Shown here in pieces: positions 108-46,097 of a DNA stretch of 64,000 bases. The position numbers and the translations under genes were made by a program. The stretch comes from a virus (lineage: Duplodnaviria; Heunggongvirae; Uroviricota; Caudoviricetes): the IMG/VR virus record IMGVR_UViG_3300010885_065725. One strand, written 5' to 3'. A model generated the notes under the pieces. The model was given only the letters and a program-made list of their open reading frames with translations, was not told the origin of the DNA and did not search any database. How positions within the stretch are numbered: the first letter of the stretch is position 1; every line of letters begins with the position of its first letter.

Positions 108-1055
108 ATGAGAAAGAAAAGAACTGTTACCAAACCTGCAATAACAAAGAACAGGCAAAAACTTTTAGATATGGGATATTCCTTACAGGAAATTGTAGAA
201 AATAATTTGAATATTAATACAGTAGGTTTACATCAACAACAACAGAGTGCTCCTGTGTCTTCTGTTCAGGTAGCAGAAAGATTTATGAGTGACGAAGAAA
301 TTTTAGATCGTCAGGTATCTTTCTTTGATACTTTGGATAAGATTGCTCATGGTGTCGCAAATGGCATAAGTAAGGCTCTTGTTATCTCTGGCAGTGCAGG
401 TATCGGTAAATCGTATGGTGTAGAGAAGATATTGTCTAATATGGATGACAGTGAAGTTAATCATTGTTATGTTACCGGACATTGCACACCTACAGGTCTT
501 TTTCAGACATTTTATAATTATAGATTTGAAAAATGTGTCATTGTATTTGATGATACTGACAGTATTTTTAATAATGAGACATCATTAGGAATATTGAAGC
601 ATGCTCTGGACATGAAGAAGGAAAGAAAAATTTCATGGCTTTCTAAAACAGAAATAAAGGACGAAGATGGTGAAGTAATACCTGCAACATTCACATTCGA
701 GGCATCCGTAATTTTTATTTCTAATATCAATCTCTCTGCAATAGTAGAGCAGAATAATAAATTGTCTCCGCATGTGAACGCGATAATTTCCAGATCATTG
801 TATCTTGATTGCTATAGTATCTTTAAGACTGACCGTGACTATCTTTTGAGAATTGATTATTTGAAGGGTTCGATATTTAGAAGAGAAAACATTGACAATG
901 CTGGCAGAGATATTATAATGTCATACATCAGCGATAATTCTGCGAATATGAGAGAATTATCTCTGAGACTGATATCTAAATTGTGTCATATTTATAAAAT
1001 ATCTGGTAAAGATAATTTTTCTGAAATGGCAACTGCATTAACTGGAAGGAGATAA
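108..1055 (+). CDS. P-loop NTPase (AAA-like ATPase), function unknown
   Basis: Walker A GSAGIGKS and Walker B-like VIVFDDTDS in the translation. No specific family recognised. Confidence 0.4.
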   Translation: MRKKRTVTKPAITKNRQKLLDMGYSLQEIVENNLNINTVGLHQQQQSAPVSSVQVAERFMSDEEILDRQVSFFDTLDKIAHGVANGISKALVISGSAGIGKSYGVEKILSNMDDSEVNHCYVTGHCTPTGLFQTFYNYRFEKCVIVFDDTDSIFNNETSLGILKHALDMKKERKISWLSKTEIKDEDGEVIPATFTFEASVIFISNINLSAIVEQNNKLSPHVNAIISRSLYLDCYSIFKTDRDYLLRIDYLKGSIFRRENIDNAGRDIIMSYISDNSANMRELSLRLISKLCHIYKISGKDNFSEMATALTGRR

Positions 1056-1225
1056 AAAAATGACTGCAAGATACATTATAATACAAAAGAATTTCCCTAT
1101 TTGGAGTATATATTCGACAGAGCAAAAAATGTATGTCAACAGACTAGGACAAGAGGATAAACTTGGGTTTTTAACTCTTGTCGAAGCACAAGCATCATTG
1201 AATTTTATATTAAAAGGTTATTAAA

Positions 1226-1783
1226 ATGAATATATTTTATCTCTCAAAAAACACTTCAGAATGTGCACAGATGCACAATGATAAACATTGTGTAAAAATG
1301 ATACTGGAGTATTCTCAATTGCTTTCTACTGCTCACCGAATTCTTGATGGTGTAGAATATATCGATGATTCTTCTGGCAGAAATATCAAAAGATGGAAAC
1401 TTGATTTTGAAAGTTATGAAAATGTGTTGTACAAGGCAACACACATCAATCATCCTTCTGCAGTATGGGTAAGACAGACATACGAAAATTATCGATGGTT
1501 GCATGCACTGTTAAGGCATTTGTGTCGTGAGTACACTCACAGATACGGAAGGATACATAAATGTGAGTCTTCTGGTCTTGTAGAGAAATTATCATATACT
1601 CCTTTCAATATTCCTATTGTAGGATTATTTTCTGAGCCTCCTGCATGCATGCCAGAGAAATATATAATACATAATGATGCAGTATGGTCATACCAGAATT
1701 ATTATGTATTTGAGAAAGATCATCTTGCAAAATGGACAAAAAGAGAAGTTCCCGAATTTTATAGTAAAAGGAAAATGTTGTAA
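1226..1783 (+). CDS. hypothetical protein
   Basis: 185-aa ORF in a compact plus-strand gene string. No recognisable motif. Confidence 0.3.
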   Translation: MNIFYLSKNTSECAQMHNDKHCVKMILEYSQLLSTAHRILDGVEYIDDSSGRNIKRWKLDFESYENVLYKATHINHPSAVWVRQTYENYRWLHALLRHLCREYTHRYGRIHKCESSGLVEKLSYTPFNIPIVGLFSEPPACMPEKYIIHNDAVWSYQNYYVFEKDHLAKWTKREVPEFYSKRKML

Positions 1784-2235
1784 TGATAAAAAAAGTTGGA
1801 GTTATTTCTGGATGGATTGGAATGGTATTGATTCAATGTGCAACAGTACCTACCACAATAAAAATTCTTTATGGGACAACAGAGAGAATTCCTCCTATGG
1901 ACATGGTATTATTGGTATGGGCAGGATTGTTTCTTTTTCTTGTCCGTTCAATAATTAATAGAGACACATTGTATATTGTGTCGAATTCGACAGGAATATT
2001 TTTCCAGTCGCTTCTTTTGATAGTAATATTAATAAAATAGGAAAATATAAATGAATAATTATGTTGCAAAACATGCAGGTAAATTCAATACGTCAAAGAT
2101 AATTCCTTCAGGAAAAGAGTATGACAGAACAAAAAAATATGAAGAGGTAAATAATCATATTTTTTTTATGTCAGATGAAGAGAAAGAAGAGGATAAAATG
2201 CTGGAAGAAGAATTATTGTATTATTATATGAGGAA

Positions 2236-2874
2236 TTAAAATATTTCTACGATAATATCTTCTATGTCAGTAATTTTTTGTGAAAGAAGAATATCTGCAG
2301 AAGTTTGTTTTTTTACTGCAATCTTTATGTCATATTCTACATAGTCATTGCCACTCATTTCTCGCAGGATATTACAGTATTCTTCGTTTACCAGACCTAT
2401 TTCATGTTCCTGAACAACAAAAATGTCTTCCATTGCAACTGCAATATATTTTTGTTTTAGAAACATCTGCTTTTTTTCTGTTGCAATTCTTCTTACCATC
2501 GCATAATATGCAATAGTGGTCATGTAAGGGAATGCACCTATAGTCTTTTTTCCGGTTCTCTTAGAGATTGCTTCAGGATTATATCTATCGAAGTATCTTA
2601 TACAATTTTCTATTGCATCAGAAATCATTTCGTCCTTGAACGAATAATTCTGAAAACATGGCATATTTGCTATTCTTGTTGCAATGAGAATGATACATTC
2701 TCCGAGATATCTTGTTTGTGTAATAGAAGGATCAAGTTTTTTCAATTCGATCCATTTTATTGCTTCTTCTGTAAATTTTTCGTTGTCAATATAATTTTCT
2801 GTCTGCTTCTTGAATTTCGTTGTCATTGTATTATTATCCATTTTATATATAAAGAAATAGTGGTAGGAGATCAT
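2236..2874 (-). CDS. 55: late-transcription sigma factor (T4 gp55 family)
   Basis: Translation aligns by eye to T4 gp55 (GECIILIATRIAN..FKDEMISDAIENCIRYFDRYNPE..TIAYYAMVRRIATEKKQ vs T4 [57 protein letters not shown]). The true start may be the internal MDNN. Confidence 0.7.
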   Translation of the reverse strand: MISYHYFFIYKMDNNTMTTKFKKQTENYIDNEKFTEEAIKWIELKKLDPSITQTRYLGECIILIATRIANMPCFQNYSFKDEMISDAIENCIRYFDRYNPEAISKRTGKKTIGAFPYMTTIAYYAMVRRIATEKKQMFLKQKYIAVAMEDIFVVQEHEIGLVNEEYCNILREMSGNDYVEYDIKIAVKKQTSADILLSQKITDIEDIIVEIF

Positions 2875-8001: not shown

Positions 8002-8757
8002 ATGAATATTTATACGACTATCATACCAACCTATCTTTACATCAAAAGGCATTCAGTTACCAAGTTAAAATACTTCGGTAAAACTTCCTTAGATGATCCA
8101 ATAAAATATCTAGGCTCAGGAACCTATTGGACAAAGCATATTAACAAACACGGCAAACAATTCGTTGATACTATTTGGTTATCTGATTTATATACTGATA
8201 TATCTATCTCCGAACACGCTCTTCATTTTTCGCACGAAAATGATATAGTTAAATCAGACGAGTGGGCTAATCTAAAACTAGAAAATGGTTTAGATGGCGG
8301 AGCATATTTACCATCACAACCTACAGTAGAAAGAATTTGTTATTGTGGAAATATTTTTCAAACTAAACACTCTAGCAAAAAGGCTACTTGTGGGTATTCC
8401 TGCTCAAATACCATTACTGCTAATAAAAGAATACCAATCGCATTAAATAATAATATCTATATATTTAAAAACCTATTCAATAACGAAATTATACACTCTA
8501 CTATTTTTGATTTTAAAAAATATTCTTTTCTTTCTGCAGCAAATATAAATCATTTAGTACATGGAAATCATAAAATAATAAAATATTGGACTATTTTTGA
8601 TACTGTAGCAAATAAATTTAGAAATGAAATTCCAAATAAATCTCCCCCAAAACCATTAACTAAAATTTGCTCCCATTGCAATAAAGAAATATCATATGCA
8701 AATTATGTTAGGTGGCATGGGGATAATTGCAAAATGATATCATTCATTATGAATTAA
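8002..8757 (+). mobile_element. free-standing GIY-YIG homing endonuclease gene (Seg-like)
   Basis: N-terminal GIY-YIG-type motifs PTYLYIKRHSVTKLKYFGKT...YLGSGTYW. Opposite strand to the polymerase cistrons it separates. GGAG ribosome-binding site upstream. Its 3' end overlaps the 43A stop. Confidence 0.75.
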
Positions 8758-9726
8758 ACCTCTCAATAAAAGCTCTTTTTTTATCAAAGTTCTCCTAAGC
8801 CCCAGTTCATCTATTTCTTGATGATCTGGGCGGATTTTTTCTATATCATATTCACCAGAATAAAATTCTTTGAATGTCTTATAGGGGTTTTTTAATTTGT
8901 TTTGTTTTAATTCATAATATCCAATCGTATCTAATTTATAATTTTCTCTTGTAATAAAAGTAAACTTCTTATATAAATTTAAGTAGTCAAGATGTTGCAC
9001 TCCATATATGTCATATGTGTTTACTATTTTTACACTCTTATCTTTTTTCTTTGTTCTTATTTCTCTTGCGCTCACTACTCCAAAAGGAGAAAGTCTTTTT
9101 GCATATTCTACTCCGAGAATCTCAGAAATTCTATTGTAGATATATGGAATATCAAATGATTCTGTGTTCCATCCGGAAACAATATCAGGATAATGAGAAG
9201 ACCAGTATTGTACGAATTTACGCAGAAGAACTATTTCTCCGTCACATTCTACATAATTAATGGATTCGTCCCCTGTATACGGCTTATATCCAAATGTTAT
9301 TATTCCATTCTTACTGGAACACAAAGTAATAAGAGTAATTTTTTCTTTTGCCGTGTCCGGATGTGGAAAACAATCTCCTACTTCTGTCTCAATATCAATA
9401 AAGCACATATCAATATCATTAATATTATACTTTACTTCTTCTTTATATTCTTCTGCAAGGAACTGATAGCTATAGTTACCATTCCCGTATAACTTCATGT
9501 TCTCTATATCTTTGTGTCGCTCAATAAAGCTCTTACATTCCTTTATGGTAACAAAACTATGCTCTACTAAAGGTTCTTTATATATCGTACAATGAGTAGC
9601 ATCTAGTTGAGATTTTGTGTATATTTTTGGAGAGAATTTAAACTTACTTCTGGTTCTTTCTCCATTTTCAATATACGAATAAAATAATGTGTCGCCAATC
9701 TGTCTAATATCAGTATAAAATTTCAT
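8740..9726 (-). CDS. 43: DNA polymerase, N-terminal 3'-5' exonuclease-domain cistron (43A)
   Basis: Exo I motif FIDIETE, and SGWNTESFDIPYIYNR, RLSPFGVV, LDYLNLYKKFTF align with T4 gp43 SGWNIEGFDVPYIMNR, RFSPIGRV, LDYLDLYKKFAF. Ends where 43B begins in the T4 alignment. Confidence 0.8.
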   Translation of the reverse strand: MKFYTDIRQIGDTLFYSYIENGERTRSKFKFSPKIYTKSQLDATHCTIYKEPLVEHSFVTIKECKSFIERHKDIENMKLYGNGNYSYQFLAEEYKEEVKYNINDIDMCFIDIETEVGDCFPHPDTAKEKITLITLCSSKNGIITFGYKPYTGDESINYVECDGEIVLLRKFVQYWSSHYPDIVSGWNTESFDIPYIYNRISEILGVEYAKRLSPFGVVSAREIRTKKKDKSVKIVNTYDIYGVQHLDYLNLYKKFTFITRENYKLDTIGYYELKQNKLKNPYKTFKEFYSGEYDIEKIRPDHQEIDELGLRRTLIKKELLLRGLIHNE

Positions 9727-9929
9727 CGATAGTCAAAAATATCTATTTGTGTATATTCCTTTCTTTTTTTGGTATTATGCATTCTATTGTTTTCACAATA
9801 TTCACATCCTCCATTATTTCTGCAGGACTTATCACATTTTTTTGAACCATAATATTTCTTTCTATGATCTTTTCTATTAGGATATTCTTTATCAAATGAC
9901 ATAATTTTCTCTTTTTTTATATTTAACAT
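9723..9929 (-). CDS. small Cys-rich (zinc-binding?) protein
   Basis: 68 aa with CDKSC...CEYC. Confidence 0.3.
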   Translation of the reverse strand: MLNIKKEKIMSFDKEYPNRKDHRKKYYGSKKCDKSCRNNGGCEYCENNRMHNTKKRKEYTQIDIFDYR

Positions 9930-9962
9930 ATATACACATAATACAGTATATTTTATGCACTG

Positions 9963-11681
9963 TCAAACAGAAATTTCTTCTATCAACGAAAAATTTCCTG
10001 TCTTTTCTGCTTTAAGATGTCGCCATTTTTCTGGAACATCCGAGATAGTATGAGAAACAATAAAAATATTTCTGTCGCCCATGTCATCTAACAATTTAAC
10101 AATTGCATCTGTTCCTACAGTGTCCATGCTACTGCTGAACAATTCATCGAATATCAGAAGGTTTGTATTGCAAGTATTCTTTCCTTCTGATATCTTACGG
10201 AACGCAAATAATACTGCAAGATTAATTCGTTGTTTCTCTCCTTCACTGAAATTTTGATATTTCATCAGATCTCTGTGTCGTGCCTTGATTGTCTCACCAA
10301 AACCTTCGTCCAGAGTAAAATTAACATAGAAATCAAGTTCTTGTAGATAATAATTTATCAATTGGTTCAATATAGGAACATATTTCTTTATAATATTAGA
10401 TTTGATTCCGGTATCTTTTAGAAGTTCTGCACAAACTTTATAATTATATATCTGTTGCGAAAGAATTTCTTTTTTCTCCTGCATATCAATAATTTTCTTT
10501 TCTATATCAATAATATCATTAGATTCTTTTTCTGTATTGATAGATTCCAATAATTTTACCAATTCCTTCTGTTGTGAACCAATAGTCCAAACATTTTTGC
10601 TCTTCAATTTATCTAGTTCTGCAATCTTATTGTCCTGCTCTCTTATTTTATTCATTACAACAAGAATAGCATTATATTCTTCTTCATATTTCTGCAATTT
10701 TGTGTCTGCTTTCTGGATTGCATCATTCAATGTAGAAATTTTTGTTTCGAACTGCTCAAGTTTCTGTTCTTTTAATTCTGAATCAATCTGTTGTGTGCAT
10801 GTAGGACATGAAGTTTTTGTATGGAAAAATTTGATTTCCTTTTCTTGTTCTCTGATCTGATACAGATATAATTTTTTATATTCTACTATTTTAGATTTCT
10901 TTTCTGATATGTCAGGCATCGCAGAAGTATTTTCATATAGATCAGTACGAATTTTTATGTGTGATTCTATTGACATATCAATACTTTCATTATCTTTTTC
11001 GCACACATCAATATTTTTTATCAAATCATTTTTTGTGTTACTTCTGTCCTGCTTAATTGCATCAATATATTTCTGTAATGACCATACCTTTTCTGTTGCA
11101 ATCTCTATTGCAGTATCTATTTCTCTTTTGTCCTGCACAACAGAATCATTCTGATCTTTAAGCAATTTTTTCATTGCCGTAAATACTTTTATGTCAAGCA
11201 GATCTTCTATGATAGTCCTGCGATCCCCTGCAGACAATTGCATGAATGGAACATACGATGCCGAACCAAGAATGACCAGTTGCGTAAAAGATTTATAATT
11301 CAATTTCAGTATCTGATCTTCTAGTATCTTCTGATAATCTTTTGTTGCTGCGTCCTGATTCTGTAATATTCCGTTCTCATATATCTCGAATATTGCAGGT
11401 TTTATTCCTCGAATAATTTTATATTCTTTTGTGCCAATATTGAAATGTAATTCTACTACACAATTCTTTGCATTAATAGAATTTACTACTGTTCCTTTTG
11501 TTATTTCTCTGAATGCTCTATTATAGAGCACAAAACATATCGTGTCCAGAATGCATGTAGATTTCCCACTACCATTTTTCCCAGAAATAAAGGTAACAGG
11601 AGAAGAATCAAGAGATATCTCTGTAGGAGCATTGCCATACGAAAGGAAATTCTGAAAAATAATTTTTTTGAATAGTATCAT
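9963..11681 (-). CDS. 46: recombination endonuclease ATPase subunit (gp46, Rad50/SbcC-like)
   Basis: N-terminal FQNFLSYGN...FISGKNGSGKST (Walker A), long coiled-coil middle, and C-terminal LLIFDE plus signature region. Length 572 aa vs T4 560 aa. Confidence 0.8.
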   Translation of the reverse strand: MILFKKIIFQNFLSYGNAPTEISLDSSPVTFISGKNGSGKSTCILDTICFVLYNRAFREITKGTVVNSINAKNCVVELHFNIGTKEYKIIRGIKPAIFEIYENGILQNQDAATKDYQKILEDQILKLNYKSFTQLVILGSASYVPFMQLSAGDRRTIIEDLLDIKVFTAMKKLLKDQNDSVVQDKREIDTAIEIATEKVWSLQKYIDAIKQDRSNTKNDLIKNIDVCEKDNESIDMSIESHIKIRTDLYENTSAMPDISEKKSKIVEYKKLYLYQIREQEKEIKFFHTKTSCPTCTQQIDSELKEQKLEQFETKISTLNDAIQKADTKLQKYEEEYNAILVVMNKIREQDNKIAELDKLKSKNVWTIGSQQKELVKLLESINTEKESNDIIDIEKKIIDMQEKKEILSQQIYNYKVCAELLKDTGIKSNIIKKYVPILNQLINYYLQELDFYVNFTLDEGFGETIKARHRDLMKYQNFSEGEKQRINLAVLFAFRKISEGKNTCNTNLLIFDELFSSSMDTVGTDAIVKLLDDMGDRNIFIVSHTISDVPEKWRHLKAEKTGNFSLIEEISV

Positions 11682-16331: not shown

Positions 16332-16787
16332 TTATCCTCCCATAGTGAGAGTCTGCCATGCAATATAATTTTTTATATCATAGCTGCGACTATGCAAACT
16401 TTTCATTATAGATTCTAATGTATATATGACAGTCTCCATATATACGACCTTATCATAAAATTTACTGAGTTCTTTATCAGAATTCAATATTTCATTCATT
16501 TCCGTTTTCAGAGGTTTATTTTCTTGGTACTGATCCCAATTTTTTTGTAGTAATTCTTCTTTGGTCAATTTGCCAGTATAATACCGCTGACGCAATGATT
16601 TCATTGCATTGTATTCATTGTATATCTTTCTGAGTTTTAATTTGTAGGCAGACAGTAATTCGAGGTATTTTGCATGTAAAGAAGGAACTTTTATGCTTTC
16701 TGTTGCGATATCGTTTCTGTCTACTACAGAATCAATTTTCCATGCCGAATTAATTTCATCAAGATTCATAATATATTTTTCTGCCAT
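16332..16787 (-). CDS. uvsY: recombination mediator UvsY-like
   Basis: C-terminal half (LRQRYYTGKLTKEELL..SDKELSKFYDKVVYMETVIYTLESIMKSLHSRSYDIKNYI) aligns by eye with T4 UvsY (LKARLDYYSG..SADKDVLKVDTSLQYWGILLDFCSGALDAIKSRGFAIKHI). Confidence 0.55.
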   Translation of the reverse strand: MAEKYIMNLDEINSAWKIDSVVDRNDIATESIKVPSLHAKYLELLSAYKLKLRKIYNEYNAMKSLRQRYYTGKLTKEELLQKNWDQYQENKPLKTEMNEILNSDKELSKFYDKVVYMETVIYTLESIMKSLHSRSYDIKNYIAWQTLTMGG

Positions 16788-16845: not shown

Positions 16846-17535
16846 TTATTGTTGAAATGTATACCTGTGCACATGGATAGCATTACCATTGCTGTCCCGA
16901 TATTTTTCTGGTTCATTACCATCTGATTCTAAAGAACCACCGCGTGGAATAATTATTTTATTTTTGTTTTTTGGAAATACCGGATTACCTTCGGTATCTT
17001 TTGCTCTGCCAATGATACCAACTTTTGTTCCCTGTGGAATATCGACTCTTGCAACATGGCGAACAATTTCTCCGTTAGAGGTATTTGCAATGGTTTTACC
17101 GATATGTGGAGAAATATCTCCTAGATGTGGTGTCTGCACAGGAAAACTATTATTACCGACCATATTCTTGTTCATTGGCATATGCACAGTAACATTTGAT
17201 TTCAATTTGTGTTGTCTGGATGCCGTATCAAATTCTTTGATATTATGATCTCCAAATGAAGATCCAGCAGTTGTTTTGGAATTTGCAGACGCAACAAAAT
17301 GATCATCTAATGGTTTCGGATCGTCAAGATATTTTTTGATATGATGCACAGAATATTCATCTGTCTTTTTATGTGCAGATGCCAGCTTTCGCATTATCAT
17401 ATCTGAACCACTTTCATTTTTCTTTATGTCAGAATTTCCTCCAAGATGAGAATTAAAATTCTTTCTGGCATAATCATCCCAGTTCCGTTCAATATTATCT
17501 GCTTCTTCTGCAAGATATTCTTTAAATGTTTTCAT
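16846..17535 (-). CDS. internal head protein-like (T4 IP-type capsid targeting sequence)
   Basis: N-terminus MKTFKEYLAEEAD closely matches the T4 IPI/IPII/IPIII capsid-targeting sequence MKTYQEFIAEA. LxE-type sites for the prohead protease are present. Hydrophilic and unstructured-looking. Confidence 0.5.
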   Translation of the reverse strand: MKTFKEYLAEEADNIERNWDDYARKNFNSHLGGNSDIKKNESGSDMIMRKLASAHKKTDEYSVHHIKKYLDDPKPLDDHFVASANSKTTAGSSFGDHNIKEFDTASRQHKLKSNVTVHMPMNKNMVGNNSFPVQTPHLGDISPHIGKTIANTSNGEIVRHVARVDIPQGTKVGIIGRAKDTEGNPVFPKNKNKIIIPRGGSLESDGNEPEKYRDSNGNAIHVHRYTFQQ

Positions 17536-17966
17536 CGTTTGTCTAATCCGAATTCATAAGGTGAATCTGCATTGGTATACAGATGTTTTGCTGGATGTTT
17601 TTCATGAACTATTTTATAATCATCAAGATGTGATTCTCCATGATCTTTTGCATATGGTTTATGTATTGTTACCCAATCCCCATGATTTATTTTATCTGGA
17701 GCAGATTTTGGTACTGCCCTATATACATCGACCATAGATTCTGGTTTATTTTTTAAAGAATGTATTTTAGCAAAAACTGCTTTATCCCCAGATTTACCTG
17801 TACCATAATATTGTACTGCCTTATTAGAATATACATCATTTGGATACATCCCATTTGCAGTAACATCATGCAATGGTGCGCCAGAATCTTTGTTTGGTGC
17901 AGTATGAGATCCTTTATATTCTTCGTCTTCTAGTAATTTACCAATGAAAATTTTAAATGTTTTCAT
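17532..17966 (-). CDS. internal head protein-like (second paralogous capsid-targeting N-terminus)
   Basis: N-terminus MKTFKIFIGKLLEDEE. Start overlaps the upstream IP-like gene. Confidence 0.4.
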   Translation of the reverse strand: MKTFKIFIGKLLEDEEYKGSHTAPNKDSGAPLHDVTANGMYPNDVYSNKAVQYYGTGKSGDKAVFAKIHSLKNKPESMVDVYRAVPKSAPDKINHGDWVTIHKPYAKDHGESHLDDYKIVHEKHPAKHLYTNADSPYEFGLDKR

Positions 17967-17984: not shown

Positions 17985-18515
17985 CTAATGAAATTTAAAA
18001 TATGTGTATCTGAAGGTTGCATTGCATGTGATATATGTAGTATCTTCTGCAGTTGTTCCAAATGTGAGTGTAGATATCCTAATAGGAAACAAATCTGTAA
18101 AATGAACATCTAAATTTATATTATTATTATTTGTTAAAATACTCAATATTCCGTCAGATGTCAATTGTGATTGACCATTCACAGATGTTCTGCCAAATAG
18201 ACGCTTTTTCTCGCTCTCACTGAATTCTTTGAATTGATCCAATGATTCGGGATGACCAAGACCATATATCCAGTGTTGCAATTCCTTGTAGTTTTTTAGA
18301 TCTTCGTCCACAATAAAAGAAAGTTCTAAATCATCGTAATCTATTTTATCTGAAGGTACATGATAATCTTGTACTGGAGTACCAATATTTATACTTCCCA
18401 TGCTCAATTCAGGTATTGGACAGACTTGAGTAAAAAATGTCACAGTAGGTATCTTGTCTATCACAAGACGAAATCCTAGCTGCGAAAGAAATTTTGGTTG
18501 ATTTGGTAGAAGCAT
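17985..18515 (-). CDS. tail tube-fold family protein (gp19/gp48/gp54-like paralog)
   Basis: Pattern PKFLSQLGFRLVIDKIP..FFTQVCPIPE..DYDDLELSF resembles the gp19 N-terminal pattern (NLFQVEI..FQCKATALP..IPV..DRTFDDW). Confidence 0.3.
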   Translation of the reverse strand: MLLPNQPKFLSQLGFRLVIDKIPTVTFFTQVCPIPELSMGSINIGTPVQDYHVPSDKIDYDDLELSFIVDEDLKNYKELQHWIYGLGHPESLDQFKEFSESEKKRLFGRTSVNGQSQLTSDGILSILTNNNNINLDVHFTDLFPIRISTLTFGTTAEDTTYITCNATFRYTYFKFH

Positions 18516-19035
18516 TATTTATTTTCCAGAATTTTTTTTATATAAATAGTATTTATACATTAAATGTATTGAAAAAAAATGTATTGCCCCCATGTCATAT
18601 TTTGACATTACAAGAATTTCACCCTGCATAGTAATTGCAGAGATGTGTAAGTACAGATATCAGAACTGGAAATGGTCTGATTTATATTGGTACAAAGAAT
18701 TCGAAATTGCATGACAAAATACAGGAAAGTCATGTCTAAAATAAATACCGTATATGATGGTGTGAAACAAAACCTATATAGATACTGCTAATGACTTGAT
18801 TTAGTATCTATTACCGCTGGGATCTCAGTAAACAGATGTAAATGCAGACAGCCCAACCACTGCTTCCTTTTAATAATAAAGGTTTTCTTCAAGTATCTTT
18901 TCGAGAGATTATATGCATATGTGCTTTCTGTTTCGTAGAATGTTTCTTTTTTTTTATGTTACAGAAAGTATTATAATTTTTTCAGATTTTATCTTTCACA
19001 GGTAAAATCTATCCTCCTGAATTCTGCAACAGAAA

Positions 19036-19152
19036 AAGCTTCTGCAAAAGAAATCAAAAAATAAAAAAAAAGAAAAGCTTCTGCAAAAGAAATCAAAAAA
19101 TAAAAAAAAAGAAAAGCTTCTGCAAAAGAAATCAAAAAGAAAAGAAAATATA
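19036..19152. repeat. three tandem 39-bp direct repeats (iteron-like)
   Basis: Unit AAGCTTCTGCAAAAGAAATCAAAAAATAAAAAAAAAGAA repeats with AAGCTT at 19036, 19075 and 19114. A fourth partial copy (AAAAAGCTTCTGCAAAA) is at 21181-21200. Confidence 0.7.
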
Positions 19153-19156
19153 TAAA

Positions 19157-19185
19157 TTGACAATAAAAGAAAAATAATATATAAT
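19157..19185 (+). promoter_or_regulatory. consensus sigma70-type (T4 early-like) promoter
   Basis: TTGACA(19157-19162), 17-bp spacer, TATAAT(19180-19185), about 37 bp upstream of the ATG at 19222. Confidence 0.6.
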
Positions 19186-34297: not shown

Positions 34298-34926
34298 AAG
34301 TCTATATTGTGACTGCCTATAGATGGGGTGATAGAGAGACGCATAGTTATGTTGTTGGTGTATTTGATGATAAAGAATTATCAATATTGGCTGCAAAAAC
34401 AGAAAAAGAATGGCGTGGAGGAAAATATGATTGTGAAGTAGTTTCTATGAAACTGAATGAATCACGAGAAAACAATAATTATGTAGTAGAATATAAAATC
34501 GAGGAATATTTTAAAAATGAAAAATTATAAAGAATTTATGGAAGCAGTGTTAGCTGGTGAAATCTTATATAAAGCTATTACTGATATTAAGATGAAACTT
34601 TGTCCAACAACTTTAAATATATCTTTAAAGAGTAAGGATGGTGTTTGGGTAGAAAATGTCTGTTGGTATTTTCCTGATATAGCAGAATGGGAAATTCTAC
34701 CAAAGACTATCAATATCAATGGTATTGAAGTTCCTGAACCAGTTAGGAAACCTTTAGCACATCAACAGAATTATTATTTGTTAGCAATCTATAGAGAAGT
34801 TTTTTATTGTTCTTGGCTTAGTACTGAACAAGATTATATGTGGTTAAATCAAGGTTTGATTCATCTAACAAAAGAAGCAGCCATTATTCACAGAGATGCT
34901 TTATTATCATTTACACAAAAATAGTT

Positions 34927-39275: not shown

Positions 39276-40955
39276 TTAATCTTTCATTCCAAGTTTTTTA
39301 ACATTTGCTGTACTAGGAACTTCTTTACCTACATGTGCAGGTCTTCCAGTAGCCTTTTCATGTGCAAAAGCTTCTTCTTGTTCGTCAGGATGATTTGCAT
39401 GCAGAATACCTGTAGCATGATCCAATCTATTAGTATCATGGAACATTGTACTATGAGACAAATCGTGTTTAGGTGTAGAACTTACTGCACTAGAAACAAT
39501 AGCCAATCCAACTCTCTTACCTGATCTTGTTTTAGTTGTTCCTGCATTTTGTTCTTCGTCTGCTGCACGATTATCATGTGCAGGTGTTATTGCATCATAG
39601 TCTTGATAATGATATCTTCTACGTTTAGTAGATCCATCAGAATCTTTTCTACTTTTAGTAGTCCATCCCCAACCATTGGGATGATGAAATTCTTCCTTAG
39701 TAGAATCTTTTTCTGAAACACCTTCTTCTTTATGACCTTCAGGAATATCTTTTCCTATCTTCCACGATCTAAATTTTTTGGTATTATTCATAAAATCTTC
39801 ATGATTTGTATATACTTTATCATGTGTTTTCTTTGATTTACTATTAGGTCTACGAATGTTTGCTACCACATATTGATTCATTGGATGTGGATTAGAGTCA
39901 CTTTCTGTGGTCTGTTCTGTCATATGTTCATCACGATTCTTCAGAGGATTAACAAATTCTGAAGTACCTGTGTCAGGATTCTTTTTTACAAATGGTCCTG
40001 AATTCGACCAAACTTTAAAATTTCCACTTTTAGGATCATTTTTATCTTGTGGATTCTTGGTATAACCATATCGAGTATATTTTACTCCAGCGTCCTGTGC
40101 TATTTTTTTGTTTAATGTATTGTGTAATTCGTTATATTTTTCATCATGATCATTAGTATAATTATCGCCTCTAAGTAAAAGATTACGATTATCTCTTCCT
40201 GCTTTTGCGTGCGCAAGTTTTATTTCATGCATTAATGTTAATACATGATCTCCATGACTTTCTAATGAATGACGTTCTGCTTGGCTATAGTGATCACGAG
40301 AAACACGATTAGTATCTTGTTGTCCTTGAGCTTTTTGTGCAAGACAACTACCACCAATACCTTTTTTTGCTCCTGTTCCACCACAAGAGGCAGTAGCATG
40401 ATTACATGTCACTTGATTGGAAATTGAACCATCACCAAGGATATGTGGATACACTGCAGGTGAACCTGAAATACCATATGTATGATTTTTTTTGCCACCG
40501 ATTACAACATCATTTGCAGTTTCATTTTTAGTATTTCCATGTAAATGTTTGCCACCTAAACCAGCAGCCTTTCTTCTTGCTTTTGCTCCAGCAACAGCAA
40601 TTCTTTGTTCTGCAGGTTCTAATTTATGAAAATTGTTTGCTACATCAACTGCATTATCGGAAAGTTCTTTATTTGATAATTTTTTATCTTGTTTTCCATA
40701 TACATTTTCTAATTTTTCCTGTTTTGCAGTTCTTAGTCCAGTATATTTTTCTGTAAACTTTGCATTTTTTTCTGGATCAAAATCAATATCTTCTTCTAAT
40801 GGACATTCACCTTCTGAAATTTCACTTTCATGAAGTTTTGTAATTTTAGGAAAAGGTTGTCCGATATATCCAGCATCCATTCCCAGGAATCCCTGATTAT
40901 CTTCGTCCCTTTGTTCTTTAGCATTTTCTTTATCGTGATCTTTAAATCCTAACAT
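39276..40955 (-). CDS. large low-complexity His/Gly/Lys/Asp-rich protein (possible virion internal or ejected protein)
   Basis: 559 aa, strongly hydrophilic, no hydrophobic core segments. Immediately downstream of the gp23 terminator in the late structural block. Confidence 0.35.
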   Translation of the reverse strand: MLGFKDHDKENAKEQRDEDNQGFLGMDAGYIGQPFPKITKLHESEISEGECPLEEDIDFDPEKNAKFTEKYTGLRTAKQEKLENVYGKQDKKLSNKELSDNAVDVANNFHKLEPAEQRIAVAGAKARRKAAGLGGKHLHGNTKNETANDVVIGGKKNHTYGISGSPAVYPHILGDGSISNQVTCNHATASCGGTGAKKGIGGSCLAQKAQGQQDTNRVSRDHYSQAERHSLESHGDHVLTLMHEIKLAHAKAGRDNRNLLLRGDNYTNDHDEKYNELHNTLNKKIAQDAGVKYTRYGYTKNPQDKNDPKSGNFKVWSNSGPFVKKNPDTGTSEFVNPLKNRDEHMTEQTTESDSNPHPMNQYVVANIRRPNSKSKKTHDKVYTNHEDFMNNTKKFRSWKIGKDIPEGHKEEGVSEKDSTKEEFHHPNGWGWTTKSRKDSDGSTKRRRYHYQDYDAITPAHDNRAADEEQNAGTTKTRSGKRVGLAIVSSAVSSTPKHDLSHSTMFHDTNRLDHATGILHANHPDEQEEAFAHEKATGRPAHVGKEVPSTANVKKLGMKD

Positions 40956-42712: not shown

Positions 42713-43456
42713 TTAAAGTTTTGAAATTGCATCCATATAATGTTTCATATATGCTGGAACTTCTACAACTTTACCATTTTCGTTGATACCAACTTCTTCT
42801 GCTAATACATTTAGTTTGGCAGTTGTTTTAGGAAAATAGTTTTCTTTGATAGTAACAACATTTTCTTTGTATAATTCTTCTGATTCAAAAGAAATATGTT
42901 CTACCAAAGATTTTAATTTTTCGCTGTCTATTGCAGTCAAACCTTTTGCTTCTTCTGCAACAATAGATAACTTAACAAGATCAGAAACTTTCTTATGAAG
43001 ACCAATATTTTTTTCTAATTGTTCATTCAATTGTTCTTCAAGAGTTTCTACCTTTACTTCCATCTCACCGAGAACATCATATTTTTCTTCTGGAACATCG
43101 ATATAAGATTCTTGGAAAAGATTTTTCATGCCAGAGATGAAATTTTCTGTAATTTCATTTTTGATACCAGTTTCTAGTTGTAGTTTGTTTTCTTCTACCC
43201 ACTCAGAAATAGCATAGTTTAAAAAAGAATCGATTTTTTCGGTCAATTCTGTTTTTGCTTCTTCCAGAGAATCTTCGAATTTTTGTTCGAATTCTTCTGA
43301 GATAATAGCAACTTTATCAGAAACTTTTACAGCAACAACAGTTTCAAAAATAACTTTTAATTTATCTTTAAAATCTTCTGTTAAATCTGTTCCTTCAAAC
43401 AAATTGCCGAAATCTACTGATTCCTCAATTTTTTCTACTTTTTCATCTTCTTGCAT
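42713..43456 (-). CDS. 22: prohead core scaffold protein (gp22-like)
   Basis: Highly acidic coiled-coil protein between the protease and major capsid genes. T4 late promoter motif TATAAATA on the minus strand at about 43495-43502 upstream. Confidence 0.55.
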   Translation of the reverse strand: MQEDEKVEKIEESVDFGNLFEGTDLTEDFKDKLKVIFETVVAVKVSDKVAIISEEFEQKFEDSLEEAKTELTEKIDSFLNYAISEWVEENKLQLETGIKNEITENFISGMKNLFQESYIDVPEEKYDVLGEMEVKVETLEEQLNEQLEKNIGLHKKVSDLVKLSIVAEEAKGLTAIDSEKLKSLVEHISFESEELYKENVVTIKENYFPKTTAKLNVLAEEVGINENGKVVEVPAYMKHYMDAISKL

Positions 43457-43514: not shown

Positions 43515-44168
43515 CTATAATCTATTAATAAAAGCATTGAACCTTGCTTCTATCAAATTTTGCATTTCTTTTGCAGATGCCTTGCGTATGGCAGTCTTTG
43601 TTTCTTCATGAAATTGTTCTACCCATTCGCCATCTACCTGTACCCATTCTTTATTTTCCATTACAGAATTAACGAATGCAGCAGGAGCAGAAGGATCAGA
43701 AACAATATCGATAGTTCTAAGAGAAAAATCTGATTGCACTTCATTTAGACCATCGTCTCTCTTCTTTAGACTTCCCAGTGCACGACTAGAGACTCCGAAT
43801 TTTACTCCTTCGTCCATCAGTGCTTTCACAATTTTACCGCATGGAGTATTCAGAACTTTTGCTTTTCCGTATACGTCTGTTCCTTCCATTTTTAGTTCGG
43901 TAATTAAATGACTCGCTTCTCTTGGATCAACAGAGACTCTATTCAATGGATGGTTTAATTCTCCCATTGCTCTATTTTCTAAAATATATTCTTTATTATA
44001 TTTGTTTACTTCTCTTTCCATTATATCTGTAGGGTATATCCTTCCATTTCTATTTCCTACTGCAGACTGCATGAATACACCAGAAATAGAATATTTCTTT
44101 GCTCCACCTTCTGCAGCTTCCAAAATAGAATCTACTGATTCAAATAGTTCAGTGAGTAACTTTGCCAT
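43515..44168 (-). CDS. 21: prohead core protease (gp21 family)
   Basis: ELNHP and SSRALGSL match T4 gp21 ELNHP..SSRGLGSL. 217 aa vs 212 aa. Confidence 0.75.
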   Translation of the reverse strand: MAKLLTELFESVDSILEAAEGGAKKYSISGVFMQSAVGNRNGRIYPTDIMEREVNKYNKEYILENRAMGELNHPLNRVSVDPREASHLITELKMEGTDVYGKAKVLNTPCGKIVKALMDEGVKFGVSSRALGSLKKRDDGLNEVQSDFSLRTIDIVSDPSAPAAFVNSVMENKEWVQVDGEWVEQFHEETKTAIRKASAKEMQNLIEARFNAFINRL

Positions 44169-44650
44169 TAGGATACTTCTCCATTTGTATCAGATTTTAC
44201 TACAGTAATTTTTTTAGAAGGATCTTTACGCAACATAGATTTCATGATATTATTCGCATGATCTTCTGAATCAAATGTTTTCCATTTTTTTCCATTGATA
44301 TGAACTTCATGTGGATGTTGTTGTGCAGTCGCATAATTATTTGCTGCTCTCTTGTATGCAACAGATTTACCTTTGAATCTAGGATCTTCGTCATCTGCTT
44401 CGTCATGTCCAATATAGTCTTCTTTTTCTTTTTGAGAAAAAGAACTGCCGAAACCACCGACACCATATTTGACTGTTGGTGCACCGACAGTCCATTTTCG
44501 TGCTTCCTCTATTGAAGTGTCAGGATCAGAAGAAGAAACAATTTCTGTTACTTCATATGTCATCATAGATAATTCTAAATCTTCTACTAAATGTTTATAT
44601 GTTTTCATATTATTAGAAATTCCAAGGTAGTGCATTATGGGCTTGTGCAA
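44168..44650 (-). CDS. prohead core/internal protein with capsid-targeting sequence (gp67/68-position)
   Basis: Contains MKTYKHLVEDLE (T4 capsid-targeting-like) 15 residues in; an alternative start is at that Met (plus coordinate 44608). Sits between the portal-proximal gene and the protease, as gp67/gp68 do in T4. Confidence 0.4.
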   Translation of the reverse strand: MHKPIMHYLGISNNMKTYKHLVEDLELSMMTYEVTEIVSSSDPDTSIEEARKWTVGAPTVKYGVGGFGSSFSQKEKEDYIGHDEADDEDPRFKGKSVAYKRAANNYATAQQHPHEVHINGKKWKTFDSEDHANNIMKSMLRKDPSKKITVVKSDTNGEVS

Positions 44651-46097
44651 CTTTTTTTGCGTGTGCCTTATTGTCTACGGGAAGAGTAATTCCACCTACA
44701 GGTTGTCTAGAATCAGTAATTTGTACTTTATATCCTTTTACTTTTGTGCCAAAATAGTGTGCAAATTTTTCTGGAGATTCTTCTTCTAATGATTCTTTTA
44801 TAAATTGTTTTGCAGTACCATGAGCATCATCTTTATCTGAAGTATGATAATCACCATCACTCAAATGTTTGCCATTTTTAAAATGTTTTACACGATATTC
44901 GTCCCAATCTGAATCCTTATATACTTTTGCAGTTTTTGTTCCACAATCGCTATGATGAGTACCGACCAGTTTCATACCTTCTTCTAATGCTTCAGAAGTA
45001 CTTTCACATGATGATTTTTCATTGAACAACCCTTGTGCGATTTGTTGTTTCATTCCTTCTAATGTTTCTGCAACTTTTGCAGAAAGAACTGTCTGCAATT
45101 GATCTTTTGCTGCAATTAGATCATCTGTTGCAATCGAATCAAATAAATCTTCTGTAATATTTTCCACGGTAAGAGCCTTGTTTTTAGGTAAATTTAATCC
45201 CATAATATGGGCATTATTGAATGAAGGAGCAATTCTTTTTCTTGGTGCATTTGCTGCTGCTCTTTTTGCCATGATATCTGATGCAGTTTGTTTCATACCA
45301 GAAATGGCAGAAGAAAATTTTGCAGATGCTCTATCAAGAAAAGAAGGTTTACTGTCCGGTAAATGTTTTGCGATCAGATCAGAATGTTTATCAGAACCAG
45401 CATCTTTTAATGCTCTCAGATGATTGATAGCAGCTTCTTTTACTCCTGCAGAACCAGACTCAAGTGAATGAGAAAGTTGAGTCTTATTTGCAAGACCATG
45501 TTGCAACACAAATTTCTTATCTTCTTCGCTTCCGTGTGCAAATATTGCATGTTTATGATCTGCAGTAATACTTTTCTTTGCATCTGCAATAGTATCAGGA
45601 GTACCCATTCTTACTGCTGCTCTAAGTGTCCCTACAGAGTTGACATTCTTATGAAAATTCTTATCTAATTGATTTGTAGATTTTTTCTGAGAAGCAATAT
45701 GAGAAGATACATCATCCAACGAATTATCATCTAAATGTCCAGAAAATAATAATGCATGTCTTGCATAGTCATCATGAAACTTATCATTTGTTCCTGCACC
45801 ATGTTTCATAATACTTGATGCAACATCAGGAGAAATAGATTTATTATGAAAAGTATGGAGATAATTGTGCATTGCCTCATATGATTTTTTACTTTTCAAT
45901 GCTTCTTGTAGAGTCTGACCTTCTTCTTCTTCATCTTCTACAGATTCTCTTTGCTTCGCATAATATGCTGCAAGTGCCATTTCTTTTCTTTTTGATTTAG
46001 ATTTTCCTTCAAATCTTGGATCATCAGATTTTATAAAATCATCAATAAAATCTTTTGCAGATGCAGAATCATCTAATATTTCTTGTATTTGTGTCAT
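44613..46097 (-). CDS. hypothetical head-module protein
   Basis: 494-aa hydrophilic ORF between portal and prohead core genes. TAATG stop/start coupling with the downstream gene. Confidence 0.3.
   Translation of the reverse strand: MTQIQEILDDSASAKDFIDDFIKSDDPRFEGKSKSKRKEMALAAYYAKQRESVEDEEEEGQTLQEALKSKKSYEAMHNYLHTFHNKSISPDVASSIMKHGAGTNDKFHDDYARHALLFSGHLDDNSLDDVSSHIASQKKSTNQLDKNFHKNVNSVGTLRAAVRMGTPDTIADAKKSITADHKHAIFAHGSEEDKKFVLQHGLANKTQLSHSLESGSAGVKEAAINHLRALKDAGSDKHSDLIAKHLPDSKPSFLDRASAKFSSAISGMKQTASDIMAKRAAANAPRKRIAPSFNNAHIMGLNLPKNKALTVENITEDLFDSIATDDLIAAKDQLQTVLSAKVAETLEGMKQQIAQGLFNEKSSCESTSEALEEGMKLVGTHHSDCGTKTAKVYKDSDWDEYRVKHFKNGKHLSDGDYHTSDKDDAHGTAKQFIKESLEEESPEKFAHYFGTKVKGYKVQITDSRQPVGGITLPVDNKAHAKKVAQAHNALPWNF

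Follow-up and report, generated by a model that had tools for sequence, protein, structure and literature searches.

Capsid-targeting-like leaders on two adjacent genes with ADP-ribosyltransferase-like bodies in a T4-like phage: candidate capsid-targeted cargo

Genes A and B and their leaders

The 64,000-nt stretch of viral DNA analysed here (IMG/VR virus record IMGVR_UViG_3300010885_065725; hereafter, the window) carries, in the junction between homologues of gp3 and uvsY, two adjacent genes, designated A and B. Each of them opens with a short leader resembling the capsid-targeting sequence (CTS) of the T4 internal proteins (Ips) IPI, IPII and IPIII, and continues into a body related, clearly for B and weakly for A, to the ADP-ribosyltransferase (ART) superfamily. 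A preliminary description of the window had placed two open reading frames (ORFs) beginning with MKTFK next to uvsY rather than in the head module. Both ORFs are real, fill positions 16846 to 17966 exactly as given there and do begin with MKTFK at the gp3–uvsY junction; they lie on the minus strand, a detail which had been left unsaid. The stop codon of A and the start codon of B share the sequence ATGA, resulting in a 4-bp overlap. The window belongs to a new T4-like phage with 31.6% G+C, and no near DNA match to it was found among GenBank phages. Its major capsid protein (MCP) is about 56% identical to the cyanomyovirus MCPs, thus placing the host phage in a distant lineage near the cyanomyoviruses, rather than in Tequatrovirus.

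According to NC_000866, the leader of both IPII and IPIII of T4 is MKTYQEFIAE, cut ahead of Ala, and that of IPI is MKTFKEFTSTTTPVSTITE, which begins with MKTFKEFTS, ends with ITE and is likewise cut ahead of Ala. The first ten residues of IPIII suffice for packaging (Black-laboratory work, summarised in PMC9026906); leader residues 4 and 7 have been assigned to targeting and residues 8 and 10 to processing, the gp21 protease cleaving after L/I-X-E (PMC9026906). The leader of B has MKTFKE in common with IPI and -E(F/Y)(I/L)AE, up to the cut, in common with IPII and IPIII, and it agrees with T4 at all four mapped positions (4, 7, 8 and 10). In the leader of A (MKTFKIFIGK at its first ten residues) F4, F7 and I8 agree with T4 and position 10 is Lys, so that the cut site of A must be the LLE found three residues later. 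An L/I-x-E site therefore ends the leaders of B (LAE, residues 8–10), of A (LLE, residues 11–13) and of a third gene, C, of the head module (LVE, residues 7–9), in each case as the presence of a site with a predicted cut. LLE is also the sole L/I-x-E site in the entire A protein and, lying inside the leader, it implies that the body of A should survive gp21.

To put a figure on this resemblance, all 621 ATG starts of the window followed by at least 40 codons were scored against MKTYQEFIAE with BLOSUM62 (self-score, 51). B scored 38 out of 51, A and C 27, the ORF at 34517..34924 28, and the next best start 21; shuffled windows yielded 0.03 starts scoring 22 or more. A comparison set of about 0.72 Mb of mostly T4-like loci, with about 6,000 ATG starts, was also considered (80 IMG/VR uvsW loci and four relatives, L003–L006); outside L003–L006, only two independent N-termini of this set reached 24 or more. 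By these sequence scores, the match of the A and B leaders to T4 exceeds chance. Both leaders are flexible in the AlphaFold2 (AF2) models, with a predicted local distance difference test (pLDDT) value of about 52 for residues 1–20 of A and below 50 for residues 1–14 of B.

The ORF at 34517..34924 carries a fourth CTS-like N-terminus, lies in a block of small plus-strand genes, lacks a clean L/I-x-E site and had no match in a Pfam search. A 559-aa ORF located after the MCP gene (MLGFKDHDKE) was considered as a further tagged protein and was not supported, since hydrophobic residues are missing at positions 7 and 8.

Table 1. Features of the window referred to in the text and their positions
Feature	Position	Strand	Remarks
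Gene A	17532..17966	minus	144 aa; begins MKTFKIFIGKLLEDEEYKGSH; 13-aa CTS-like leader and ~125-aa minimal ART-like domain (phrog_2579)
Leader of A	17928..17966	minus	MKTFKIFIGKLLE, then DEE; LLE at residues 11-13
Gene B	16846..17535	minus	229 aa; begins MKTFKEYLAEEADNIERN; 10-aa CTS-like leader and C3/VIP2-type ART fold with degenerate catalytic motifs
Leader of B	17506..17535	minus	MKTFKEYLAE; gp21 cut predicted after E10 (L-A-E, then E; next residues EAD)
gp3 homologue	17985..18515	minus	Tail completion / sheath stabiliser; opens the operon that continues with A and B; phrog_45; tblastn matches to cyanophage and KVP40 gp3
Late-promoter motif TATAAATA	18550..18557	minus	T4-type; ~35 nt upstream of gp3
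uvsY	16332..16787	minus	PF11056 at 6.8e-22; downstream boundary of the slot; own TATAAATA at 16812-16819
Gene C	44168..44608	minus	146 aa; begins MKTYKHLVEDLELS; leader MKTYKHLVE, then DLE; directly upstream of the prohead protease
gp21-type prohead serine protease	43515..44168	minus	Peptidase_S77 at 2e-41; phrog_207 at 2e-70
gp22-type scaffolding core protein	42713..43456	minus	T4_CASP at 1.6e-60; phrog_237 at 8e-69
494-aa ORF	44613..46097	minus	Large, hydrophilic; head module
559-aa ORF	39276..40955	minus	Large, hydrophilic; head module, after the MCP gene
135-aa ORF	34517..34924	plus	Begins MKNYKEFMEAVLAGE; CTS-like N-terminus
39-bp tandem repeat	19034..19138		Perfect; 2.7 copies, 100% match
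Sigma-70 consensus	19157-19185		TTGACA-17-TATAAT, 12/12

Bodies of A and B

The remote homology searches and structure prediction proposed in the preliminary description were run on both proteins and returned ART-superfamily folds, clear for B and weak for A. The same description had called the two bodies unrelated, and this stands in so far as A and B are not detectably homologous past the leader: when they were compared as possible paralogues, the hhalign probability was 2.7% and the leader alone aligned. The bodies are not anonymous, however, in view of the folds just mentioned.

B clearly has an ART fold of the C3/VIP2/Alt clade. Pfam and NCBIfam searches returned nothing for B, with no Pfam match at E ≤1, and the PHROGs search only the non-significant phrog_2874 (E 0.13). 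The link of B to PF03496 is transitive only, through the homologue P0126 (E 2e-9 to B), which matches PF03496 at 6.7e-7; the B profile also matches Plx2A at 1e-3. When aligned with the C3 exoenzymes, VIP2 and iota-like toxins (PF03496), B has HMP in place of YRG (Met119 for the Arg), DIS in place of STS and KNK in place of Q/ExE ahead of the IIIPRGG strand, the corresponding stretches reading VTVH-M-P, G-D-I-S-P and K-N-K-IIIPRGG. The same degeneration is found in the homologues P0002 and P0123–P0125, and STS and ExE are kept only in the distant homologues P0126 and P0127. From these motif alignments, B and its closer relatives are predicted to be ART-fold proteins devoid of the canonical catalytic residues, and for B a binding role, that of inhibitor, decoy or ligand binder, is the more likely one. 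Mature B has a predicted mass of 24 kDa and an isoelectric point (pI) of 9.1. At the position of the IIIPRGG strand T4 Alt has EMEVILPRG, a match that is not significant. B was rejected as an Alt orthologue, with no tblastn match in 50,697 phage records and a score of about 1.5 bits for the B profile against T4 Alt.

For A, the assignment to the ART superfamily is weak. Residues 13–142 match positions 337–461 of phrog_2579 (1.8e-29), named 'ParB C-terminal domain', a name that reflects ParB fusions and not a known function. Pfam and NCBIfam searches of A returned nothing, including no Pfam LPD or ART-PolyVal model. The residues conserved in the A family are H21, R83, D97, T100, Y105, H109 and E138. 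Three of them are invariant in 60 A-family sequences, each on a core strand (the first, the second and the last, respectively): R83 in YRAVP (strand 78–86), T100 in GDWVT (strand 98–100, followed by a helix) and E138 in xEFG (strand 139–141). This arrangement may represent an R-S/T-E-like site, and A is probably an active NAD+-using enzyme, which would modify some target in the host as infection begins. The list of structural matches to A includes, at low scores, the ART anti-CRISPR AcrIF11. Foldseek comparison with viral models further showed the A domain embedded, with probability 1.0, in phage polyvalent proteins of 560–1475 aa, a class that Iyer et al. (PMC5512222, PMC9503650) predict to be carried in the virion and injected. 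The predicted mass of mature A is 15 kDa and its pI 6.9; the pI of C is 5.5.

The leader as a module, the predicted late operon and the head module

The two families differ greatly in size. For B, only seven homologues were detectable among 1.8 billion representatives, and the leader is present in seven out of seven (including MKTYKEFMLE, MITFKQFITE, MKTFKDFILE, MKSFKEFNE, MKTFKQFINE and MIIPFKQYIVE). Five to six of the ten leader residues are retained at a body identity of 23–37%; within the B family conservation is thus higher in the leader than in the body, which points to selection on the leader. The A family is large (190 hits, phrog_2579), and its conserved domain begins with (D/E)Y(K/R)GxHxAP, the part upstream of it varying as a module. 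The 113 classified members fall into three groups: leaderless proteins (16), proteins with a short leader of 10–25 aa (45) and proteins with an extension of 80–118 aa (52); 17 of the 45 short leaders are T4-style and 31 contain [LI]xE. Tagged forms occur in T4-like contexts, namely gp301 of the Schizotequatrovirus VH7D (MKTYTEFLSE) and P0072 on contig L087 together with Gp23. A leaderless form lies on an actinophage-like contig that also encodes WhiB and an integrase, and forms with long extensions (about 100 aa) are found in SU10-like podoviruses just upstream of the terminase and portal genes.

Some further features of A-family loci were observed. The gp301 gene of Vibrio phage VH7D (L001 3001..3438), which also bears the RefSeq name 'ParB C-terminal domain', adjoins regA in the replication cluster, away from the structural genes. 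On L087 the gene of an A homologue (301..879, MKTFKQFITE) directly precedes that of another tagged protein (887..2311, MKSFKQFIKEE), which is 474 aa long and in which no domain was recognised. A second recurrent leader, M(K/R)LS(H/L)(I/L)x(K/R)xILE, which also ends in I-L-E, was seen on the A-family proteins P0012, P0014, P0016, P0026–29, P0035, P0043 and P0051 and on contig L088; the one second-leader contig that was examined has a clamp-loader homologue in common with the window. This M(K/R)LS-type leader may represent an alternative targeting peptide of another myovirus lineage.

To estimate how widespread the tag is, IMG/VR was scanned for DNA encoding M-K-(T/S)-F-K-(E/Q)-(F/Y)-(I/M), with position 10 left unconstrained. 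The scan retrieved at least 130 ORFs in at least 120 loci, with the leader on at least 67 unrelated bodies. Among the matches listed, 112 of 130 ORFs have Glu at position 10, as do 55 of 67 families without body similarity, and T4 hallmark genes lie in the short flanks of 47 of 120 loci. The Pfam domains recognised in the cargo comprise S-AdoMet lyase, ART-PolyVal, Tox-ART-HYD1 and ADPrib_exo_Tox, together with poly(A) polymerase-type nucleotidyltransferase, muramidase-type domains, sulfotransferase and RNA ligase.

Tandem arrays were also noticed, with four tagged genes on L139 (6502..9422, minus strand) and three each on L173 (1082..3419, plus strand) and L217; all of these genes start with MKTFKQFI.E, have unrelated bodies and resemble Ip cassettes. 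A tagged S-adenosylmethionine (SAM) lyase is encoded at 1441..2151 of L119 (PF23780 at 2.4e-17, leader MKTFKEFIQE), on a contig carrying gp17 and gp18, and others in L128, L134, L148, L152, L158, L161 and L175. SAM lyase is a classic anti-restriction enzyme, and the tagged form is therefore a candidate injected SAM lyase. Moreover, a family of 95–106-aa 'hypothetical proteins' of cultured cyanomyoviruses begins with MKSFKQFISE and has representatives in S-RIM2 and S-RIM8 as well as in Syn33 and S-SCSM1. Its gene is surrounded by others with a virion-protein annotation: in Syn33 (L220 2501..2785) it is flanked by gp16 and gp17, and in S-SCSM1 (L219 2501..2821) it lies just upstream of terL. The T4-type leader is therefore present in Kyanoviridae, where it appears not to be annotated as such.

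These data bear on whether the leader is a targeting signal at all. A and B might be ordinary cytoplasmic enzymes of the T4 ModA/ModB kind; the MKTFK start would then come from AT-rich, highly translatable 5' codons or from shared short-helix ancestry. MK- starts are indeed common in a genome of 31.6% G+C, and T4 also makes ARTs that are not packaged (PMC9503650). Codon bias, however, leaves unexplained the aromatic residues at positions 4 and 7, I/L at position 8 and Glu at position 10, the last of which recurs across unrelated families at a position that lay outside the search pattern. The absence of the leader from A homologues that are not T4-like, its conservation in the B family and the clustering of leader-bearing genes in tandem arrays and beside structural genes also speak against this explanation, which we consider improbable.

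The arrangement of the operon is in keeping with capsid targeting of A and B. The gap between gp3 and A is 18 nt, and no minus-strand terminator was found in gp3-A-B. The late-promoter motif ahead of gp3 occurs in 32 copies versus 15.5 expected, and it precedes the genes for the MCP, scaffold, portal, tail tube and sheath as well. When an early sigma-70 promoter ahead of A was sought, sigma-70-like sites were not enriched (18 versus 18.7 expected). On the basis of the late motif, the tight or overlapping junctions, the lack of a terminator and the lack of a sigma-70 excess, A and B are predicted to be expressed late with the structural proteins, and late synthesis is what prohead loading requires.

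The gp3–uvsY slot itself varies. In cyanophage Syn19 the order is gp3, a 53-aa ORF and uvsY, A and B being absent. In L003, the closest relative found, the slot holds three genes, encoding a 142-aa ASCH-like protein (8693..9121; MKTFIEYMTE; Pfam ASCH below threshold, E 0.003, 18.6 bits versus a 21.2-bit cut-off), a 292-aa protein with no known domain (9123..10001; MITFRELID, MITFRELIDNNIITEE) and a B orthologue 63% identical to B. In L003 the slot is thus occupied by other leader-bearing genes, in the manner of the polymorphic Ip loci of T-even phages. A tagged locus beside uvsY/uvsW was considered as a general feature of T4-like phages and rejected: 80 IMG/VR uvsW loci (40–46% identical) gave two leader-like N-termini, both downstream of uvsW, which indicates that the gp3–uvsY insertion is lineage-specific. 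The possibility that gp3 is a gp54 homologue, which would have made the locus syntenic with T4 alt, was also discarded, the gene being gp3. The gp3 operon and the divergent plus-strand genes are separated by 700 bp of intergenic DNA, in which the 39-bp tandem repeat lies; the sigma-70 consensus sits at 19157-19185, and the repeat region may be a regulatory or origin region.

The window also encodes, in its head module, a gp21-type protease, expected to remove the leaders, and a gp22-type core protein, their expected docking partner. Just ahead of the protease lies gene C. The preliminary description had reported a third occurrence of the leader inside ORF 44168..44650, in the prohead-core position; both the occurrence and its position hold, but the gene starts at the ATG at 44608 and is not the TTG-initiated ORF, since the C homologues P0128–P0130 start at the Met of 44608. 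These homologues keep the first ~22 residues, P0129 and P0130 beginning with MKSY(I/K)(H/N)LVEDLELS, and P0129 occupies the same place ahead of Peptidase_S77. The leader of C (MKTYKHLVED) has an aromatic residue at position 4 and L at position 7. Searches of Pfam, NCBIfam and PHROGs with C gave no match. C and the 494-aa ORF have the motif D(D/E)DPRF(E/K)GKS in common; residues 316–360 of this ORF form a gp67-like segment (E 6e-4 to T4 gp67). The 559-aa ORF appears absent at its place in one relative examined, the P0129 contig.

With C at the place of T4 gp67/gp68, upstream of gp21, the leader could be taken to direct A, B and C to the prohead core for a role in assembly, as gp67/gp68/IPIII-like accessories that are then degraded, expelled or kept as DNA-associated filler and have no part in the next host. 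T4 IPIII mutants do show head-assembly defects (PMC9026906), and B is basic and catalytically degenerate. On the other hand, A and B are accessory, absent from the cyanophage relatives and replaced by other leader-bearing genes in L003, which is not the behaviour of core assembly parts. Their folds are those of enzymes and toxins, the body of A should outlast gp21 given its lone L/I-x-E, and the A domain rides in polyvalent proteins which Iyer et al. infer to be embedded in the virion and injected (PMC5512222, PMC9503650). A purely structural role is therefore one to which we give little credence.

Proposed route into the host and comparison with known systems

The interpretation we regard as likely is that A and B are capsid-targeted late cargo. 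Both proteins would be synthesised late; the Ip-type leader would dock them on the gp22 scaffolding core during prohead assembly; the gp21 (S77) protease would cut B after LAE10 and A after LLE13; and mature A and B would remain in the head and enter the cell along with the DNA. The preliminary description had already read the N-termini as capsid-targeting sequences, and comparative support for this is strong: residues at positions 4, 7, 8 and 10, the L/I-x-E sites, conservation and modularity of the leader, the presence of gp21 and gp22, the predicted late operon and the hypervariable slot.

A number of points weigh against this interpretation. The leader of A departs from the canon at position 10 (Lys), and C has its Glu at position 9. 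A is not basic, unlike the T4 Ips. Of the R-S-ExE residues, B has neither the Arg nor the first Ser nor either Glu, so that it may have no enzymatic role. CTS function has been demonstrated in T4 only, and T4 gp22 is distantly related to that of the window. The cleavage site of the MCP does not align cleanly with T4; its propeptide site, when aligned to T4 E65/A66, was ambiguous and was not used as evidence. Finally, we infer packaging and cleavage, as well as injection, enzymatic activity and target, for both A and B.

As to function, A and B are probably injected host-manipulating or anti-defence cargo, judging from their ART-type folds. Anti-defence is one possible role, and the data do not separate it from host take-over. 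Packaging and injection would be compatible with an Alt-like job such as the modification of RNA polymerase or translation factors, with no anti-defence activity, and we consider this a real possibility, though not a probable one. T4 Alt, the sole characterised head-packaged ART, modifies the host RNA polymerase; B belongs to the Alt/C3/VIP2 fold clade, and its IIIPRGG strand aligns, at a non-significant score, to EVILPRG of Alt. Against take-over, with none of the points decisive, all three T4 Ips with known targets are inhibitors of defence (PMC12373910), a SAM lyase elsewhere bears the same leader, AcrIF11 is in the list of matches to A and the variable accessory slot resembles arms-race loci. 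By analogy, the precedents of Ip1-3, the tagged SAM lyase and the variable slot would favour anti-defence, and Alt would favour take-over.

A bolder extension, which we offer tentatively and hold to be doubtful as a whole, would see the leader as an ancient address label across the T4 superfamily (Tevenvirinae, Schizotequatrovirus, Kyanoviridae and the present lineage) and as a search handle for the injected effectors of environmental myoviruses. A would then be an active minimal ADP-ribosyltransferase which, like AcrIF11, covalently disables a host defence or first-response target on entry, and B an ART pseudoenzyme injected as a decoy, an inhibitor or an NAD/ADPr-ligand binder against NAD+-dependent or ART-based defence.

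Proteins injected with the DNA are at work ahead of all phage gene expression and are therefore the first answer of the phage to host immunity; a function is known for only a handful of them, namely Alt and, against GmrSD, T4 Ip1-3. The present locus shows the packaging tag of T4, with hardly any change, on enzyme-fold cargo in a distant lineage close to the cyanomyoviruses, and the tagged families of environmental viral contigs, at least 67 as the scan suggests, constitute a testable catalogue of candidate injected effectors. With this tag, non-coli T4-like phages could also be loaded with foreign proteins.

The T4 Ips are inhibitors of the GmrSD type IV restriction enzymes (PMC12373910), and identification of Ip genes from their leader is already established for T-even phages (PMC9026906, PMC12373910). 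In the literature searched, in so far as it could be consulted, no description was found of an Ip-type leader in phages other than the T-evens, nor of one joined to ART-fold cargo, an absence which is not proof. Like IPI, IPII and IPIII, A and B have a leader of about ten residues with L/I-x-E on otherwise unrelated bodies, are accessory genes in a variable locus and would need gp21 and gp22. The T4 Ips are basic (pI 8.9–9.5), non-enzymatic proteins of 8–20 kDa; A and B have enzyme-type ART folds, and their locus lies between gp3 and uvsY in a phage that is not a Tequatrovirus.

Given these folds, T4 Alt, an injected ART, is a functional precedent no less close than IPI. B falls in the same ART fold clade as Alt and, like it, is predicted to be loaded into the head, processed by gp21 and passed into the cell together with the DNA. 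Alt differs in its length of 682 aa, large N-terminal region, 7-residue propeptide (MELITEL...) and intact R-S-ExE, whereas B has 229 aa, an Ip-type leader and no catalytic residues. With respect to A, AcrIF11 and the Tpt1/KptA-like minimal ARTs have no sequence similarity to it and low structural scores, the conserved residues of A defining a family of its own. Packaging of AcrIF11 into virions is not known.

ARTs that are packaged into the head form a well-established theme, represented by Alt and by MuF-fused and polyvalent ARTs (PMC9503650). As in the polyvalent and MuF-fused effectors (Iyer et al. 2017, 2022), effector domains would here be routed into the virion for early delivery; the difference is that a putatively cleavable tag of 10–13 aa stands on a stand-alone domain, instead of a fusion to MuF, to the portal or to a large polyvalent chain. 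A and B thus extend a known principle and do not introduce a new one: they combine Alt-like cargo, B in the Alt fold clade and A ART-like, with an Ip-type tag, in a lineage near the cyanomyoviruses.

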